Shown piece after piece: positions 28,334-41,890 of a stretch of DNA of 64,000 bases (the first letter of the stretch is position 1; the number at the start of each line of letters is the position of its first letter). A program made the translations under genes and the position numbers. Source of the stretch: a bacterium (GTDB lineage: Bacteria; UBA8248); the NCBI GenBank assembly GCA_965200245.1, contig CBDATS010000005.1, positions 448,001 to 512,000 of the forward strand. The letters run 5' to 3'. The notes under the pieces were generated by a model that was not told the DNA's origin, did not search any database, and saw nothing but the letters and a program-made list of their open reading frames with translations.

Positions 28334-28672
28334 TTCTGGAAACCATGTAGGGTCGAAGCGGGAAAAGGTTCCGTCACTATTCCATTGCAGCTTCCGCTCA
28401 GTTCGTACTCGCTGCGGCTAGCAATGAGGCAGGACCGAAGCGCCAGTCCTCGATCTAGGGATCGGTCACTTTTTTCTTCCAATCAGTTTCCATTCCGAGA
28501 GCGCGGAAAAATGCCGCAGGTCCGCTTTCGCGGAGGAACAGGACAGTGGCGGCGAAACCGACCGCGTACGTGAAATAGAGATCGGTGCCGCATTTTGATA
28601 ATCCAAGGGTATGAAAAGGCAATCCAACTCCAGGCAAGAAACCAAAAATACAGGCGACACCTTGAGACTGAC

Positions 28673-29419
28673 TCATCCCCCCATGACGATGCCACCGTTT
28701 ACATCCAGGCAGACGCCAGTGATGTACTCTGCCTCGTCCGATGCCAGGAAAAGCGCGGCATTTGCCACATCCGAGGGTCTGCCGACACGGCCGAGCGGTA
28801 TCTGTTTCACGATCCCATCGTGGCGGGCGGGGAGCCATCCATCGGTCAGGGGCGTGGCCGTGGGGCCGGGCGCGATGGCGTTCACCGTGACGCCGTAAGG
28901 TCCGAGCGTCCTGGCAAGCGAGCGCGTGAGGCCAATGACGCCGGCTTTCGCCGAGGTGTAGGGGGATGCCGCCCGCAAAACCGCCCGAGCGCCACGCGGA
29001 TGATGAGAGGTTGATGCGACCATAGCGCCTTTCCATCATGGGCTCCGAGACGACGCGGGCGCAGAGGTATTCACCTTTCAGGTTCACGTCGATCACGGCG
29101 TCCCAGTCGTCTTCCGTGTATTCGAGATAACCCTTCTTGGGAGATATACCCGCGTTGTTGACGAGGATGTCGATTTTGCCGAACGCCTTAAGGCAGGATT
29201 CGGCCATCTCCTGAACGGCGGCGGAATCGGAAACGTCGGCCTCAAACGCCAAAACGCCGGGCACACGTACAGATAGCCCCTCCAGGAGGCCCTGGACGGC
29301 GCGGGCTTTTGGTCGCAGACGAGCAATGATGCACCTTCCGCCGCGAAACGCCTGGCCGTGGCCTCACCCAGGCCGCTTCCCGCTCCCGTGATGATGGCTG
29401 CCTTGTCCCTGAGCCGCAT
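28673..29419 (-). pseudogene. SDR/FabG-like oxidoreductase with at least two frameshifts
   Basis: ITGAGSGLG (frame 1), NNAGIS (frame 2), YTSAKAG...NAIAPG (frame 3). Confidence 0.85.
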
Positions 29420-29432
29420 GTGGTTCGCCTGA

Positions 29433-30209
29433 TCAGAATTGAACGAAGCCGCCATCCACGTTGATGGCCTGGCCGGTGATGCCGCCCGAGTCCTCACACG
29501 CCAGCAGAAGGGCAAGCGGAGCACACTCCTCCGGGTCGATAAAACGCTTCATCGGCACCCTGTTCCTGAGTTCCTCTTCCTGTTCCTCGAAGCTCTTGCC
29601 CGTCTCGTCAGCCCATTTCTGGATGCTCTCCTCAAACATGCCGGTCGAGACGAAGGTAGGGCAGATGCAGTTCGCCGTGATGCCGTACGGGGCGACTTCA
29701 GCCGAAAGCGCTTTGGTGAGGCCAAGGACGGCGTGTTTCGAGGCCGCGTAGGCACTTCTGTAAGCCAGACCGATTTTCCCCGAAACAGACGCCACGTTGA
29801 TGATCTTTCCCGATTTTCGCTCAAGCATTGAGGGTAGAACCTCGCGTATCGCCGTGAATGGAGCTTTGGCGTTGATTTGCATGGTGCGCTCCCAAACTTC
29901 GTCGGGAAGTTCGTGAACGGCTTCAAAGCTCACGATACCGGCGTTGTTCACGAGAATGTCGATGGGGCCGAGCACATCGACCGTCTTGCGCAGCGAATCG
30001 AGAATATCCTCATCCCTCATGACGTCGCAGGCGCACACGAGCGCCTTTCGCCCCATCGCCTCGATTTCCTTGGCGAGCGCCTCGAGTTTATCGACAGAGC
30101 GGGCAGCAAGGGCAATGTTCGCTCCCTCGCTCGCGTAGGTGCGCGCAATGGCGCCGCCAATGCCGCCGGATGCGCCCGTGATGAATGCGACTTTACCTTC
30201 GAGTTTCAT
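29433..30209 (-). CDS. SDR oxidoreductase
   Basis: TGASGGIG, NNAG, YAASK, GQAINVDGG. Confidence 0.92.
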   Translation of the reverse strand: MKLEGKVAFITGASGGIGGAIARTYASEGANIALAARSVDKLEALAKEIEAMGRKALVCACDVMRDEDILDSLRKTVDVLGPIDILVNNAGIVSFEAVHELPDEVWERTMQINAKAPFTAIREVLPSMLERKSGKIINVASVSGKIGLAYRSAYAASKHAVLGLTKALSAEVAPYGITANCICPTFVSTGMFEESIQKWADETGKSFEEQEEELRNRVPMKRFIDPEECAPLALLLACEDSGGITGQAINVDGGFVQF

Positions 30210-36575: not shown

Positions 36576-36971
36576 GAATTCATGGCAAGTTCCACCGGGA
36601 AATCTTACCCCGTCCCCAGGTCTTTGGGAAGCCGGAGCATCGGCAATTTGAGGATTGCGACTCGCAAGTAAGGCAACCATGCTAACATCATGGCCTTAGA
36701 AGTATCCCATTCAAAAGGCCTGCGAAACGATGCGCAAAGACAATATCAGCGACTGAGCCACTTCTGGGGCGAGGGCGCAAAAAACTGCAAGATATATGGC
36801 AGGAATAGTTTGCGGCCTTTTCCAAAAGCACCGGAATCATTTTCCCGCTTCTCTAGCATTTGCGAATCGCTAATTCACAGCAAATAAGGTTAGAATGAAC
36901 CTTTCAAACATTTGGTCGAGTGAAGCTCCGGTTCTTTGTTTTGCAACATTTCAGGAAAGGCCATCGGAAGC

Positions 36972-37835
36972 ATGTCGTTTTCCAAAGTCGTCGAACTCAA
37001 AGAGGGGAAGGTCTACGCCCTCCACAACACGTTTCCCCTGGACGGGCGTATTAGCGCATACCCCATCAGTGCGCGCGGTCACAGCGTATCGAACTGCTAT
37101 CTCCTGAAAGAAGATAACGGAGCCCTCCTGCTCGACACGGGCTACGCCGCCCATGAAGCCGAAATTCTGATGCAACTCGAATCCATCCTCGAACCGACCA
37201 CGCCCCTGATAATGCTTCCGCTTCGCATCAACGAATTCATGTCGGTCGGCAACGCCATGGCGATTGCCAAGCGCTTCAATGTGGTGGAATGCCTGGCTCC
37301 GGTGCCGGAGATCAATGATTGGCTGGAGTTCGAAGCGCTGGAACCAGGCGGCAGGAACAACGGCAACCCCGTTCTTTCCACCACGATACTGAAGCCGCTC
37401 CATCCTATCGAACTTGGTGACAGATACATTGAGGTGATGAACGCGCCGATTCGCCTCATCAGCACGCGGTGGATATACGATGCGGCCACGCGCACCCTGT
37501 TTTCTTCGGACATGTTCAGCCATCTCTGGGCGGAAAAAACGGAGGGCCCCTGGATACTGGATGAGGATGAGGTAACGACGACATCTTTCGTTCGCTCGTT
37601 CCTGCTGAACACACGCTACTGGTGGCTTGAGGGCGCGCGGACAGATTCCATACGAAAAGGTATCGCAGAAGTTTTCGAGCGCTACGATATAGAAACCATT
37701 GCCCCGGGCTACGGCGCCATCCTGCACGGGCGCCATCTTGTCGAACAGCAATTCGCCGTGCTGGACGAGGTTCTGGCGGATCTTGATCGGAGTATTGTCA
37801 AGCCGGGGTACGTTGCACTTGGCCTGGAGAGATAG
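36972..37835 (+). CDS. MBL-fold protein with degenerate metal motif
   Basis: SNCYLL..LLDTG, TLFSSDMF, IAPGYG; the HxExxH region is replaced by LRINEFMS. Confidence 0.7.
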   Translation: MSFSKVVELKEGKVYALHNTFPLDGRISAYPISARGHSVSNCYLLKEDNGALLLDTGYAAHEAEILMQLESILEPTTPLIMLPLRINEFMSVGNAMAIAKRFNVVECLAPVPEINDWLEFEALEPGGRNNGNPVLSTTILKPLHPIELGDRYIEVMNAPIRLISTRWIYDAATRTLFSSDMFSHLWAEKTEGPWILDEDEVTTTSFVRSFLLNTRYWWLEGARTDSIRKGIAEVFERYDIETIAPGYGAILHGRHLVEQQFAVLDEVLADLDRSIVKPGYVALGLER

Positions 37836-37843
37836 GAGCGAGC

Positions 37844-38602
37844 ATGAACCCACTGCCCCGTGAAATCTCTCCGGGCGTCTTCTGGCTCGGTGACTGCCTT
37901 GTGCAGCACTCGCAAGGGAAAATCTATCACTCCTACAACGCGGCCTTCCTCGTCATCGGCACTGAGGCATCCATGCTTGTAGAGACGGGACATCCCAAGG
38001 ACTTTCCCATCATCGAGCATCAGATGAGAGATATTCTCTCCAAAGGAGGAGGCCCGCTCAAACACCTGTTCCTTACCCATCAGGAAACCCCCCACTCGGG
38101 CGGTCTAGGCCGCGTTCTCGACAGATACCCCGACCTTACCATCCATGGGGACATGTCCGACTACCATCTGGCGTTCCCCCAACACGAGAACCGTTTCCAA
38201 GAGATGCGCGTCGGGGAGACCATAGACTTGGGAGACTCCCAGTTCATGGCCGTGGAACCCATAATCAGGGACCTGAGAAGTTCTCTGTGGGGTTTTGAAA
38301 CAAAAGGACGCGTCCTGTTCCCCGGAGACGGCTTTGCCTACAGCCACTACCATACGGACGGGCATTGTGGGATGTTTGCCGAGGAGGCCACCTCTCTGGA
38401 TCTGGTCGACGTGCTGGGTGTGTTCGCGGAACGCGCCCTGTTCTGGACCACCTTTACCGATATGAACATATACGCCGACAAACTGGAAGAACTGATGGAA
38501 TATCTGGGTGTCGAAGTAGTCGCGCCGACACACGGCCTTCCCATACGAGACATTGCACGCACGATGCCCAAGGTAAGAGAAGGCCTGATCCGGGGCGACT
38601 GA
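37844..38602 (+). CDS. MBL-fold (FprA/ODP-like) metalloprotein
   Basis: YNAAFLV, THQETPHSGG, LFPGDGF, APTHG. Confidence 0.8.
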   Translation: MNPLPREISPGVFWLGDCLVQHSQGKIYHSYNAAFLVIGTEASMLVETGHPKDFPIIEHQMRDILSKGGGPLKHLFLTHQETPHSGGLGRVLDRYPDLTIHGDMSDYHLAFPQHENRFQEMRVGETIDLGDSQFMAVEPIIRDLRSSLWGFETKGRVLFPGDGFAYSHYHTDGHCGMFAEEATSLDLVDVLGVFAERALFWTTFTDMNIYADKLEELMEYLGVEVVAPTHGLPIRDIARTMPKVREGLIRGD

Positions 38603-38634: not shown

Positions 38635-39033
38635 CTAGACATCCTCCACCAGTTCCCAGAGCGTACCCATTGTGCTCTTGGGCTTGATGAAGGCGATGAG
38701 GTGCCCGCCAAAACCGGGCCGCGACTTTTCATCTATCAATTCGAAGCCCTGCGCCTTCATCTCGGCAAGAACACCGTCGATATTCTTGACGTCGAAGGCG
38801 ACATGATGGAGACCCTCGCCTCGCTCTTCGATGAATCTGGCGAGAGGCGAGTCATCCCTGATGGGTGAGATGGGTTCGATGAGATCACCTCCCAGGTCCA
38901 GCATGGCCAGATCAGTTGCACCGTCGGCAGAAGTTTCCCGCGCGAGCAGTTTCGCGCCCATGCTCTTATAGAGAGTGATAGCGGCATCCATGTCTTTCAC
39001 CGCGACGCCTATGTGATGAAATTTGTTGAACAT
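38635..39033 (-). CDS. mce: Methylmalonyl-CoA epimerase / VOC family protein
   Basis: HHIGVAV, GEGLHHVAF, FIKPKSTMG.LWELVE. Confidence 0.85.
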   Translation of the reverse strand: MFNKFHHIGVAVKDMDAAITLYKSMGAKLLARETSADGATDLAMLDLGGDLIEPISPIRDDSPLARFIEERGEGLHHVAFDVKNIDGVLAEMKAQGFELIDEKSRPGFGGHLIAFIKPKSTMGTLWELVEDV

Positions 39034-39254
39034 TTTTGAATTCCTCCCGACTCGGCTCGGCGTCGGGACACTCCCATCGCCGCATCGGCCATTCGATGAT
39101 TTAATGACAATCTGTTTAGCAGGCTTGCTTGAATTCTACAATCAAACCTACCGATTCCAAACACTCGAAACTATACTTGGCGCAGCATATGTCGTATCCT
39201 GCGCGAATCGACGCCATAATCAGCTCTGCTTATCCATATATGAGGAGAACATCC

Positions 39255-39818
39255 ATGCAAGAAGACCCCATCGACGGACACTCCACCTCCATCGTGCCTG
39301 GTGAGCGCGTCATCGACAAGCCGGAACTTCCCCGTGGAGGGCTTTATACCGACAACACCGTCCACACCGAGATGTATGAAGGCTCCCTGCAGTTGAAACG
39401 CGGCACGGCGGGCGATTTCGAGATTTTCTGTGACGAGGGGGCGCACATTGGCGGCACGGCCCAATACCCCACGCCGATGGCCTATCTCGCCATGGCGACG
39501 GGATTCTGACTGCTTACCCAGGTGTCGCGGTACGCGCACATGATGAAAATGCAGATCAAGGGAGCGAGCGTCTCGGTGCGTTTCCGAAAGTTGCTTGGCG
39601 GCTCGGTGCTTAAAGGCACCGTGTTCAACAAGTGGGAGGCTGTGGACACACATCTTAAAATCGAATCAGACGAGCCGGCAGAGAGGCTCGCTCACCTGAT
39701 AAAGAATGCCAAGAATGGATGTTTCGCCGAGAGTTTGATCACCGAGCCGGTGCCACTTCACTCCACCGTGGAGGTGAACGGCGAACCCTTCCAGATAGAG
39801 GGCGTCACGGCGGATTAA
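39255..39818 (+). CDS. OsmC-like protein, putative selenoprotein (Sec85, TGA 39507-39509)
   Basis: PTPMAYLAMATGF-U-LLTQ continues in frame to AKNGCFAE (second Cys). Hairpin GTGTCGCGGTACGCGCAC begins 12 nt after the TGA. RBS GAGGAG. Confidence 0.85.
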
Positions 39819-39840
39819 CCCCCAGAATGGAGTTATTTTG

Positions 39841-40299
39841 ATGGAATACTTCAACGCATCAGATGACATCGCTTTCGGCTCGCAACCCGAACCTGCGGAT
39901 TTGAAGACCCTCGCCGAAAACGGGGTCAAGACCATCATCAACACCCGCTTCCCCGAGGAAGACCAGGGCGACCTCCCGCCCGAGCGTGCCAAAGTCGAAG
40001 CAAAGAAGCTAGGGATGCGCTATGTGAACATCCCTGTTTCGCCGGTCGAGTTCAGTCCAGCCTCACTTGCCGAGGTGAACCGCGCGCTCACGGAAGCGAA
40101 GGCCCACGGGCCCGCGTTCGTACACTGAAAGGCAACGGGGCGGGCCGGGATTTGCTCGCTGAATCATCTGGCGGACGAGAACGACTGGACAGCGCAGGAG
40201 ATGGAGCAGGCGGCCGACGCCACCGGTTTCGACTGGCGCGACGCGCCGCTCGCGCCAAAGTACCGCGAGTTCTTCTCAAGGAGACCCCAAGGGGAGTAA
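39841..40299 (+). CDS. DUF442/Blh-type (PTP-like) sulfurtransferase, putative selenoprotein (Sec96, TGA 40126-40128)
   Basis: SQP, GVKTIINTR, GMRYVNIPV, GPAFVH-U-KATGRA equals the HCx4R active loop. The frame stays open 56 more codons to TAA 40297-40299. Hairpin at 40140-40159. Confidence 0.83.
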
Positions 40300-40488
40300 C
40301 TCTCGCATATCCTCGCATTTGCAGTCATGATCGCGCCTGTAAATTCGTGTCTCCTCACCTTGTTTCCGGCGAGGGGGAAATATGTACCTTCGAACAAAGC
40401 AAATATTGATACTACTTGCCTTGGATATTTGAGGGTTCTATAATCTCTTAACTTTCCAGACTTTCCGGGTGGCCGAGGAGGCGAGTAC

Positions 40489-40735: not shown

Positions 40736-41890
40736 ATGGTGGATCAGAAGGTGAGAGAAGAGATCGCTTCAGTCGAACGCCGCAATTTCCTCAAGTTGGC
40801 AGGTGCAGGCGGTATAACGGCCGCGCTTGTGGCCGCCGGGACCGGGGTGCTCTCCTCAAGCAAGGCCTCGGCTTAGACGGCCAAGGAGGAAGCCCAGCGC
40901 AGGCGCACCGCGAAATACACGATGACCATGGCGACCGCCTATGTGCTTACGGCGGACCGCAGCTATCCTATCATGCAGCTCGACTTCAAGGAGAATATCC
41001 AGAACGCCACCAACGGCAAGGTTTACGTCAAGCTGGCGGCGGGCGGCCAACTGGGCGTCGGTTCGACGCTGGCCCAGAAAGTACAAAGCGGCACGATTCA
41101 GGCGGCCCAGCATTCGCTGTCGAATTTTGCCCCTTTCGCTCCTGTCGTCGACCTGATCAACCTGCCCTATCTTTGCGGCGCCAACCAGCGCTTCGTGAAT
41201 CTGGTGACCTCCGATCACTGGAAAAAAACCATTCACCCGAAGGTGGAGGCGAGAGGATTCAAGCCACTCTACTATATCGTCATCGATCCGCGTGTCGTAG
41301 CGGTCCGCAAGGGTGGGGCAGGCGCGGTCATTAAGCCAGCGGATCTGAAAGGTGTGAAGTTCCGGGTACCGGGCTCGAAAATGCTGCAGCAATACTATCG
41401 CCTGGTCGGCGCCAACCCGACACCGGTCGCCTGGGGAGAGACACCCTCGGCAATCAAACAGGGCGTGGCGGACGCGCTCGACCCGGCTGTCGGCGCGCTC
41501 TTCGTCTTCGGCTTCAAGGAGATATTAGGCCATGTGACCTTCACACAGGCGGTTCCGGATAGCCAGGTCTTCTCGTGTAATCTCAAATGGTTCAACTCGC
41601 TCCCCAGCGACGTGAAGGACGGAATCGAATTCGCATCGGGGATCACGTCGCAGCAGAACCTCGCCAAGGTGCCAGCGGCGCGCAATTATGCGATGGCGGA
41701 ACTCAGGAAGTCCGGCGTTCAGTTCCACTCGCTCAGCAAAAAGCAGTTGGCGGTCTGGAAAGAGGCGGGCGGATACCAGCGATCCGAGTGGGACGGCTTC
41801 AAGAAAAAGCTGGCTGGCTCCATGGATTCGTTCAATAAACTGGTCGAAGCCGCCGACACGCAGAGCCGCTATTACGTTCACGACGCCTAA
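40736..41890 (+). pseudogene. TRAP substrate-binding protein DctP (Tat signal) with in-frame TAG at 40874-40876
   Basis: MVDQ...ERRNFLKLAG...KASA*TAKEE in frame with GQLG, DLKGVKFRVPGS and PTPVAWGE. Confidence 0.82.

Follow-up and report, generated by a model that had tools for sequence, protein, structure and literature searches.

Among the closest described relatives of the protein reported here are the N-terminal domain of Blh from Xylella and Agrobacterium and the DUF442 domain of the Cupriavidus pinatubonensis SQR, both homologous to it and, in the available portions of the two reports, both with rhodanese-type activity. The Blh domain uses thiosulfate as sulfur donor and cyanide or GSH as acceptor (PMC5823870), and the SQR domain has a positively charged cradle with an essential cysteine, C94, and an essential arginine at +5, R99; a persulfide forms on C94 and is passed to sulfite (PMC6441731). 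As far as these excerpts reach, they back the premise of a first-pass annotation of this DNA that DUF442/Blh domains use an HCxxxxR loop for sulfur transfer. Both domains carry Cys and are fused to a persulfide dioxygenase or an SQR, whereas the protein described here stands alone and very probably uses selenocysteine (Sec). Among known structures, 2f46 (Neisseria meningitidis NMA1982) resembles it in being a single domain of the same size and fold, with the same nucleophile-x4-Arg spacing (H-C-x4-R); 3gxg and 3gxh (Shewanella putrefaciens) are alike in size and fold, but the aligned residue after the His is Leu, not Cys. At 18-21% identity to these three structures, our protein differs from them in its TGA-coded nucleophile, in a loop Gly at +4 rather than +3, and in a clade-specific Cys at +9.

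A second point of comparison comes from the rhodanese-type selenoproteins (PF00581/COG0607), in which, in the accessible parts of the sources, Sec takes the place of the catalytic Cys in a sulfur-transferase active-site loop (PMC2398784, PMC13188914). They belong to an unrelated fold and family, and our protein has no rhodanese Pfam match. With regard to lineage, BSepDB ranks certain UBA8248 members that NCBI labels Nitrospinota with the bacteria richest in selenoproteins, at 48-54 genes; the genome studied here may or may not be one of them.

In the 64,000-nucleotide stretch of DNA that we analysed (the window), a gene for a stand-alone DUF442 protein is interrupted by a TGA at the codon that aligns with the family's catalytic Cys. 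As a whole, we consider this gene best explained as encoding a selenoprotein with Sec-based sulfur transfer, with a probability of roughly 0.6. The decoding step taken separately, in which the TGA at 40126-40128 is read as selenocysteine and the gene is a true selenoprotein, appears very probable.

39829 to 39832, + strand: Shine-Dalgarno-like GGAG, 8 nt 5' of the ATG, within the 22-nt spacer that follows the stop of an OsmC-like gene
39841 to 40299, + strand: DUF442-type gene (DUF442-Sec), very probably a selenoprotein gene, 152 residues including Sec96, with ATG at 39841 and TAA at 40297-40299
40123 to 40143, + strand: codons of the active-site loop, H95-U96-K-A-T-G-R101 (H-U-x4-R)
40126 to 40128, + strand: in-frame TGA, codon 96, aligned to the family's catalytic Cys and very probably read as selenocysteine

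The encoded protein starts with MEYFNASDD. The residues around the TGA in the first-pass annotation, GPAFVH before it and KATGRA after it, match the sequence exactly, as do the 56 sense codons that follow; the segment after the TGA begins with KATGRAGICSLNHL. Under translation table 11 the open reading frame ends after 95-96 residues. At 58% G+C, a stretch of 56 codons free of stops is no rarity, and by itself it is unremarkable. TGA terminates 18 of the 43 open reading frames in the window and is thus an ordinary stop codon elsewhere.

Profile searches place the protein in the DUF442 family. It scores 43.2 bits against Pfam BLH_phosphatase/DUF442 (PF04273; gathering threshold 26.1) over residues 7-102, so that the family assignment of the first-pass annotation was borne out. 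The alignment to the TIGR01244 profile that it had envisaged, and that to the Blh profile, succeeded only in part: both models align over residues 6-135, spanning the TGA, but at 45 bits against a cut-off of 85.85 (TIGR01244) and 56.1 against 625 (Blh, NF040641), and the NF040641 alignment covers only positions 3-130 of the 423 in the profile. We therefore reject membership of the TIGR01244 sulfur transferase subfamily on score, and membership of Blh, a fusion of DUF442 with an ETHE1-type dioxygenase, on score and because the present protein is a stand-alone one of 152 residues. It reaches no dedicated NCBIfam model at cut-off.

Homologues outside the immediate clade support the alignment of the TGA with the nucleophile. 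An exhaustive search (E up to 0.001) returned 1417 homologues, many of them stand-alone proteins of about 150 residues aligned over residues 1-150. In an alignment of 79 sequences (A2), the columns of H95, C96 and R101 are nearly invariant, and among its 72 distant homologues the TGA column holds Cys in 65 and the +5 column Arg in 68. This agrees with the original proposal of Sec in an H-C-x4-R active-site loop, which had also been tied to the post-TGA segment aligning with the C-terminal helices of the family; that segment does align with them. The loop Gly lies at +4 in the Sec clade (U-x3-G-R) and at +3 in the family (C-x2-G-x-R), a shift that suggests that the chemistry may differ from that of characterised DUF442 domains.

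Structural comparison gives the same assignment. Direct phmmer searches against the PDB gave only weak matches (best E 0.054), and the A2 profile matched 2f46 at 2.8e-20 and 3gxg at 1.4e-17. An AlphaFold (AF2) model of the protein (pLDDT 88.3, pTM 0.83) has a strand at residues 92-95 followed by a helix at 100-114, and its predicted fold is of the PTP-like alpha/beta type with the nucleophile at the strand-to-helix loop. A Foldseek search with this model returned the DUF442 structures 3gxg, 3gxh and 2f46 at the top (TM 0.69-0.82, E 4e-8 to 2e-7), with dual-specificity phosphatases next.

This fold raises the question of a Sec-based phosphatase of the dual-specificity or PTP type, acting on protein or small-molecule substrates. 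In addition to the shared fold, there are weaker Pfam matches to phosphatase families (PTP-NADK, 28.6 bits against 27), TpbA, PTPMT1 and PFA-DSP1 follow the DUF442 entries in the Foldseek results, and the PDB depositors label 3gxg and 2f46 'putative phosphatase'. However, the classical PTP/dual-specificity signature C-x5-R is absent, as the loop has x4, and HMMER alignments to TpbA and PTP1B show the U-x4-R loop to lack one residue relative to CX5R. Selenocysteine is as a rule a sign of redox or chalcogen chemistry, and we know of no phosphatase that uses it. The published biochemistry of DUF442 domains, in the portions of the reports at hand, is sulfur transfer (PMC5823870, PMC6441731). Taken together, we regard a phosphatase as quite improbable.

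If the TGA were a real stop, a 95-residue fragment would be left, of a pseudogene or a split gene; alternatively, the codon could be read as a residue other than Sec. Such readings, which we consider very improbable, find a foothold in the public gene calls, since among 40 close database proteins 38 have 95 residues ending in ...VH, at the TGA. These calls leave the enzyme without its catalytic half in databases. The remaining two are a 162-residue Cys form, P0034, which at 49% identity is the closest full-length Cys form, and a 112-residue form diverging after about residue 70. Some relatives have an ATG directly after the TGA, from which a 53-residue ORF has been called (P0054), but most relatives have no start codon there, and a stop at codon 96 would cost a single-domain fold three of its helices, together with the nucleophile and the catalytic Arg.

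Comparison of related genomes also argues against a stop. A contig scan found 16 loci, comprising 14 full-length ones, one contig-end fragment and one distant sequence, and the TGA at codon 96 with in-frame continuation is present in 14 of the 14 full-length loci, a count that, like all comparative counts here, overstates independence because the sequences are related. These orthologues are 76-89% identical to the query, and their matches run across the TGA, from query residue 1 to 145-151. A survey of the phylum turned up 59 places, spread over 36 of 51 genomes, and 57 of them retain the TGA; of the other two, one is a C-terminal fragment lying at the end of a contig and the other a match both weak and partial. 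The survey matches are confined to one family, being found in 35 of the 41 genomes there and in 0 of the 9 in the other three families. Thus, the survey of UGA-containing orthologues suggested by the first-pass annotation, whose reading depended on close relatives not ending at the TGA, shows that they continue past it in a conserved frame.

The downstream frame carries the third-position bias of coding sequence in all relatives. Across 15 sequences, differences at the first, second and third codon positions number 826, 791 and 2831 before the TGA and 259, 297 and 1059 after it. When the C-terminal part was compared with that of the window, synonymous exceeded non-synonymous change in 12 of 14 comparisons, the exceptions being loci L023 and L025. 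Judged from these substitution patterns, the 49 aligned post-TGA codons are under purifying selection. Four orthologues terminate the DUF442-Sec gene itself with a TGA about 52 codons after the Sec TGA, implying that TGA is read by context in this gene.

The genome also contains the machinery for selenocysteine insertion, which, together with the use of TGA as an ordinary stop, counts against reassignment or a plain stop. It encodes SelA (501.8 bits), a SelB wing domain (77.4 bits), a tRNA-Sec with anticodon TCA (75.9 bits) and selD (338.6 bits; L048, at G000:C8:72779-73741 on the - strand). The selD gene contains an in-frame TGA, so the selenophosphate synthetase is itself probably a selenoprotein here.

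Most genomes of the window's genus hold two copies of the DUF442-Sec gene. In this genome the second copy lies at L027:2001-2444 (G000:C5:285646-286089), on the - strand, and is 36% identical to the first, with the same hairpin after the TGA. A further in-frame TGA stands in it at the place of a Trp codon of its relatives (..FDW..), and the copy is possibly truncated, or the consensus is in error at that point. A maximum-likelihood tree (49 rows) joins the Sec sequences and the Cys form P0034 in one clade (support 100/99, stem 0.8), apart from 12 Cys homologues. The Sec sequences fall into two deep groups, and P0034 is placed within or next to the second-copy group, a position that is weakly supported. 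Since the tree is rooted at the midpoint only, we claim no direction for the change between Sec and Cys. A metagenome scan with P0034 returned two loci, both distant (33-34% identity).

Bacterial Sec insertion calls attention to the RNA that follows the TGA, where a candidate recoding element overlaps the codons of the active site.

40139 to 40160, + strand: SECIS-like hairpin, stem 40139-40145 with 40154-40160, loop 40146-40153, beginning 13 nt past the first base of the TGA
40153 to 40155, + strand: TGC codon of Cys105, a residue specific to the Sec clade; two of the stem pairs are made by the G and C of this codon

The hairpin was noted in the first-pass annotation as GCGGGC / CGGGATTT / GCTCGC at 40140-40159 and is present there; RNAfold adds one G-U pair, extending it to 40139-40160 with a 7-bp stem and an 8-nt loop, CGGGAUUU, that contains G residues. 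The codons for Gly-Arg-Ala in the active-site loop make up its 5' arm, and those for Cys105-Ser-Leu its 3' arm. The folding energy was no better than that of shuffled sequences (z +0.66 and +0.38; 149 of 200 and 123 of 200 shuffles folded equally well or better), an unexceptional stability that could be counted in favour of a TGA not read as Sec. Since the hairpin is no stabler than shuffles, the case for it rests on comparison. By themselves, neither it nor the open run of codons goes beyond chance expectation, whereas the comparative counts, of the retained TGA and of the recurring hairpin, do.

For this comparison, we aligned the 54 nt from the TGA in 36 sequences, namely the window, the 14 loci, the second copy and 20 of the remaining survey places, the last picked to span the identity range. 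The hairpin is found in 36 of 36. A pattern used in picking contained part of the hairpin and missed two loci, but both, when read separately, have the hairpin. Over the seven stem pairs 203 of 203 cells are paired. Three pairs vary, each on one side and with pairing kept (G-U/A-U twice, G-C/G-U once); compensatory double changes occur at 0 of the 7 pairs in the 36 sequences, and covariation is not demonstrated. With no compensatory changes, the structure rests on conservation and on frozen synonymous sites. At four-fold-degenerate sites with a conserved residue in 17 orthologues, the third base is invariant at 4 of 4 sites in the hairpin (Gly100, Ala102, Gly103 and Ser106) against 9 of 45 elsewhere. 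The Arg101 codon uses G or A only, each of which pairs with the opposite U, and the variable columns of the hairpin region are 25 and 27, in the loop, plus positions outside the stem. Such freezing of synonymous sites is a further argument against a plain stop or a codon read as another residue.

We propose that UGA codon 96 would be read as Sec by SelB and tRNA-Sec, recruited by the stem-loop 13-35 nt downstream, whose sequence also encodes part of the active-site loop and the start of the next helix (G-R-A-G-I-C-S-L). The predicted product would be a stand-alone DUF442 enzyme of 152 residues with a cysteine-phosphatase-like fold. Sec96 would replace the catalytic Cys at the bottom of a positively charged H-U-x4-R anion-binding cradle and attack a sulfane-sulfur donor, such as thiosulfate, GSSH or polysulfide. 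The sulfur would then be carried as an Se-S adduct of the enzyme and passed to an acceptor, such as a thiol or sulfite. The first-pass annotation had likewise suggested that Sec here could form selenosulfide or perselenide intermediates. By analogy with the Cys-type DUF442 domains, we give sulfane-sulfur transfer by Sec an even chance of being the actual chemistry. A likely parallel in chemistry is offered by the rhodanese-type selenoproteins.

Alternatively, the protein may be a true selenoprotein that acts as a reductase or redox switch through a selenenyl-sulfide cycle between Sec96 and Cys105. All 36 Sec-clade sequences carry Cys105, as does the Cys form P0034, but none of the 72 distant Cys-type homologues, which have L, F, M or V at this position. 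Most selenoproteins are redox enzymes, and enzymes with a loop of this kind include arsenate reductases that use resolving cysteines. Possible substrates might be persulfides, polysulfides, an oxyanion (arsenate) or a partner protein, such as an OsmC-like selenoprotein in the window's genus. However, two of the conserved stem's pairs come from the Cys105 codon, and this RNA constraint alone could account for the conservation of the residue. The hydrophobic residues of the distant homologues also speak against a resolving role; their alignment suggests a buried helix site. We consider a reductase or redox switch unlikely, though less so than a phosphatase. A more specific scenario is that the SECIS reshaped the active site, shifting the Gly and placing Cys at +9, and that this Cys was then recruited as a resolving residue, turning a sulfur-transferase fold into a Sec/Cys selenenyl-sulfide reductase that would be the first Sec enzyme of the cysteine-phosphatase superfamily; this we put forward as a doubtful conjecture.

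Genomic context bears on the same alternative, as the gene immediately upstream encodes an OsmC-like selenoprotein.

36936 to 37835 and 37844 to 38602, + strand: two metallo-beta-lactamase (MBL)-fold genes (Pfam Lactamase_B and ODP)
38635 to 39033, - strand: glyoxalase/VOC gene, methylmalonyl-CoA-epimerase-like (TIGR03081, 115.7 against 114.95), divergent from the OsmC-like gene
39255 to 39818, + strand: OsmC-like selenoprotein gene (start 39240 or 39255), TGA at 39507-39509 in a UxxT motif (NF041052 OsmC_like_Se, 166.4 bits against 95)

The genus block thus consists of two MBL-fold genes, the VOC gene on the opposite strand, the OsmC-like gene and the DUF442-Sec gene. Among 14 same-genus loci, VOC and OsmC are each present in 14 and the MBL genes in 12 and 13. 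The OsmC-like gene ends 22 nt upstream of DUF442-Sec in all 14, an arrangement that would suit a redox partnership, but an OsmC gene lies near DUF442-Sec in only 1 of 21 further loci, and we reject the OsmC protein as an obligate partner in general. Its family, NF041052, is likewise a small redox-type selenoprotein of this lineage, but it has a different fold and is already catalogued. The OsmC-like gene has its own hairpin after its TGA, with a bulged U (z -1.06).

In the window's genus, the OsmC-like and DUF442-Sec genes are probably in one transcription unit. Four samples, all belonging to a single study, gave RNA-library contigs over the DUF442-Sec gene that show no differences from the window, including at the TGA. 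Contigs start at 39221-39244 in all four runs, and one spans 39244-40198, bridging both selenoprotein genes, which counts in favour of a reductase acting with the OsmC-like protein. We take these contigs as a hint of transcription, as DNA carry-over is possible and a single transcript is not proven by them. A terminator scan found none after the DUF442-Sec gene, and a promoter-like site lies at 40416-40444, before the next genes.

Elsewhere the neighbours are different. Our scan took in 40 of 65 flanking ORFs, drawn from 20 of the 21 further loci (L027-L044 among the labels), and found a Transglut_core2 (PF13369) gene bordering DUF442-Sec in 14 of these 20 loci and ilvD on the opposite side in 16. 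The second copy in this genome is preceded, at a distance of about 10 codons, by the Transglut_core2 gene in the same orientation. Because neighbours differ between lineages, context offers little functional guidance.

No SQR or persulfide dioxygenase was found among the scanned ORFs between 26684 and 53247. We also considered the MBL-fold neighbours as persulfide dioxygenases (ETHE1) and found this assignment unsupported, as their best matches are of ODP/flavodiiron type, with GloB reached only at E 0.005. The best NCBIfam match of the second MBL-fold gene is a flavorubredoxin di-iron domain, far below cut-off, and the two genes may be a sign of a cluster for oxygen, NO or peroxide stress. 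The second gene has the motif H-x-E-x-P-H, where the usual MBL motif is H-x-H-x-D-H.

A full-text literature search returned no paper joining DUF442 with a selenoprotein, and of the papers naming PF04273, TIGR01244 or COG3453, none among the matches listed was on selenoproteins by its title. The part of the family table of a 2026 review that was available (PMC13188914) has no entry for PF04273, TIGR01244, phosphatase or 'sulfur transferase' and gives rhodanese forms only, and the accessible portion of the GOS survey (PMC2398784) has phosphatases only as PP2C-type fusions. The family is absent from a 2022 selenoprotein review, is not among the nine new families of deep-Sep and is unnamed in the main text of BSepDB. 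We did not find a DUF442 selenoprotein in the published family lists examined, and an earlier listing is possible. If the TGA is indeed read as Sec, the cysteine-phosphatase-like fold would join the set of folds that use selenocysteine, and the natural Sec/Cys pair would offer a test of what selenium buys in sulfane-sulfur and persulfide chemistry. The overlap of the RNA recoding signal with active-site codons would be a compact case of dual coding, in which the mutual constraint of RNA and protein is directly testable.

Two further genes in the window show irregularities of their own. Downstream, a TRAP-transporter binding protein (DctP) frame at 40736-41890 (+ strand) has an in-frame TAG at 40874-40876, between a Tat-type signal peptide (RRNFLK...ASA) and the mature domain, for which a broken gene and an assembly error are among the possible explanations; the downstream TRAP-transporter genes occur in 0 of the 14 same-genus loci. 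A short-chain dehydrogenase gene at 28458-29480 (- strand) matches only profile positions 51-138 and is garbled on both sides, and so is probably disrupted by frameshifts.
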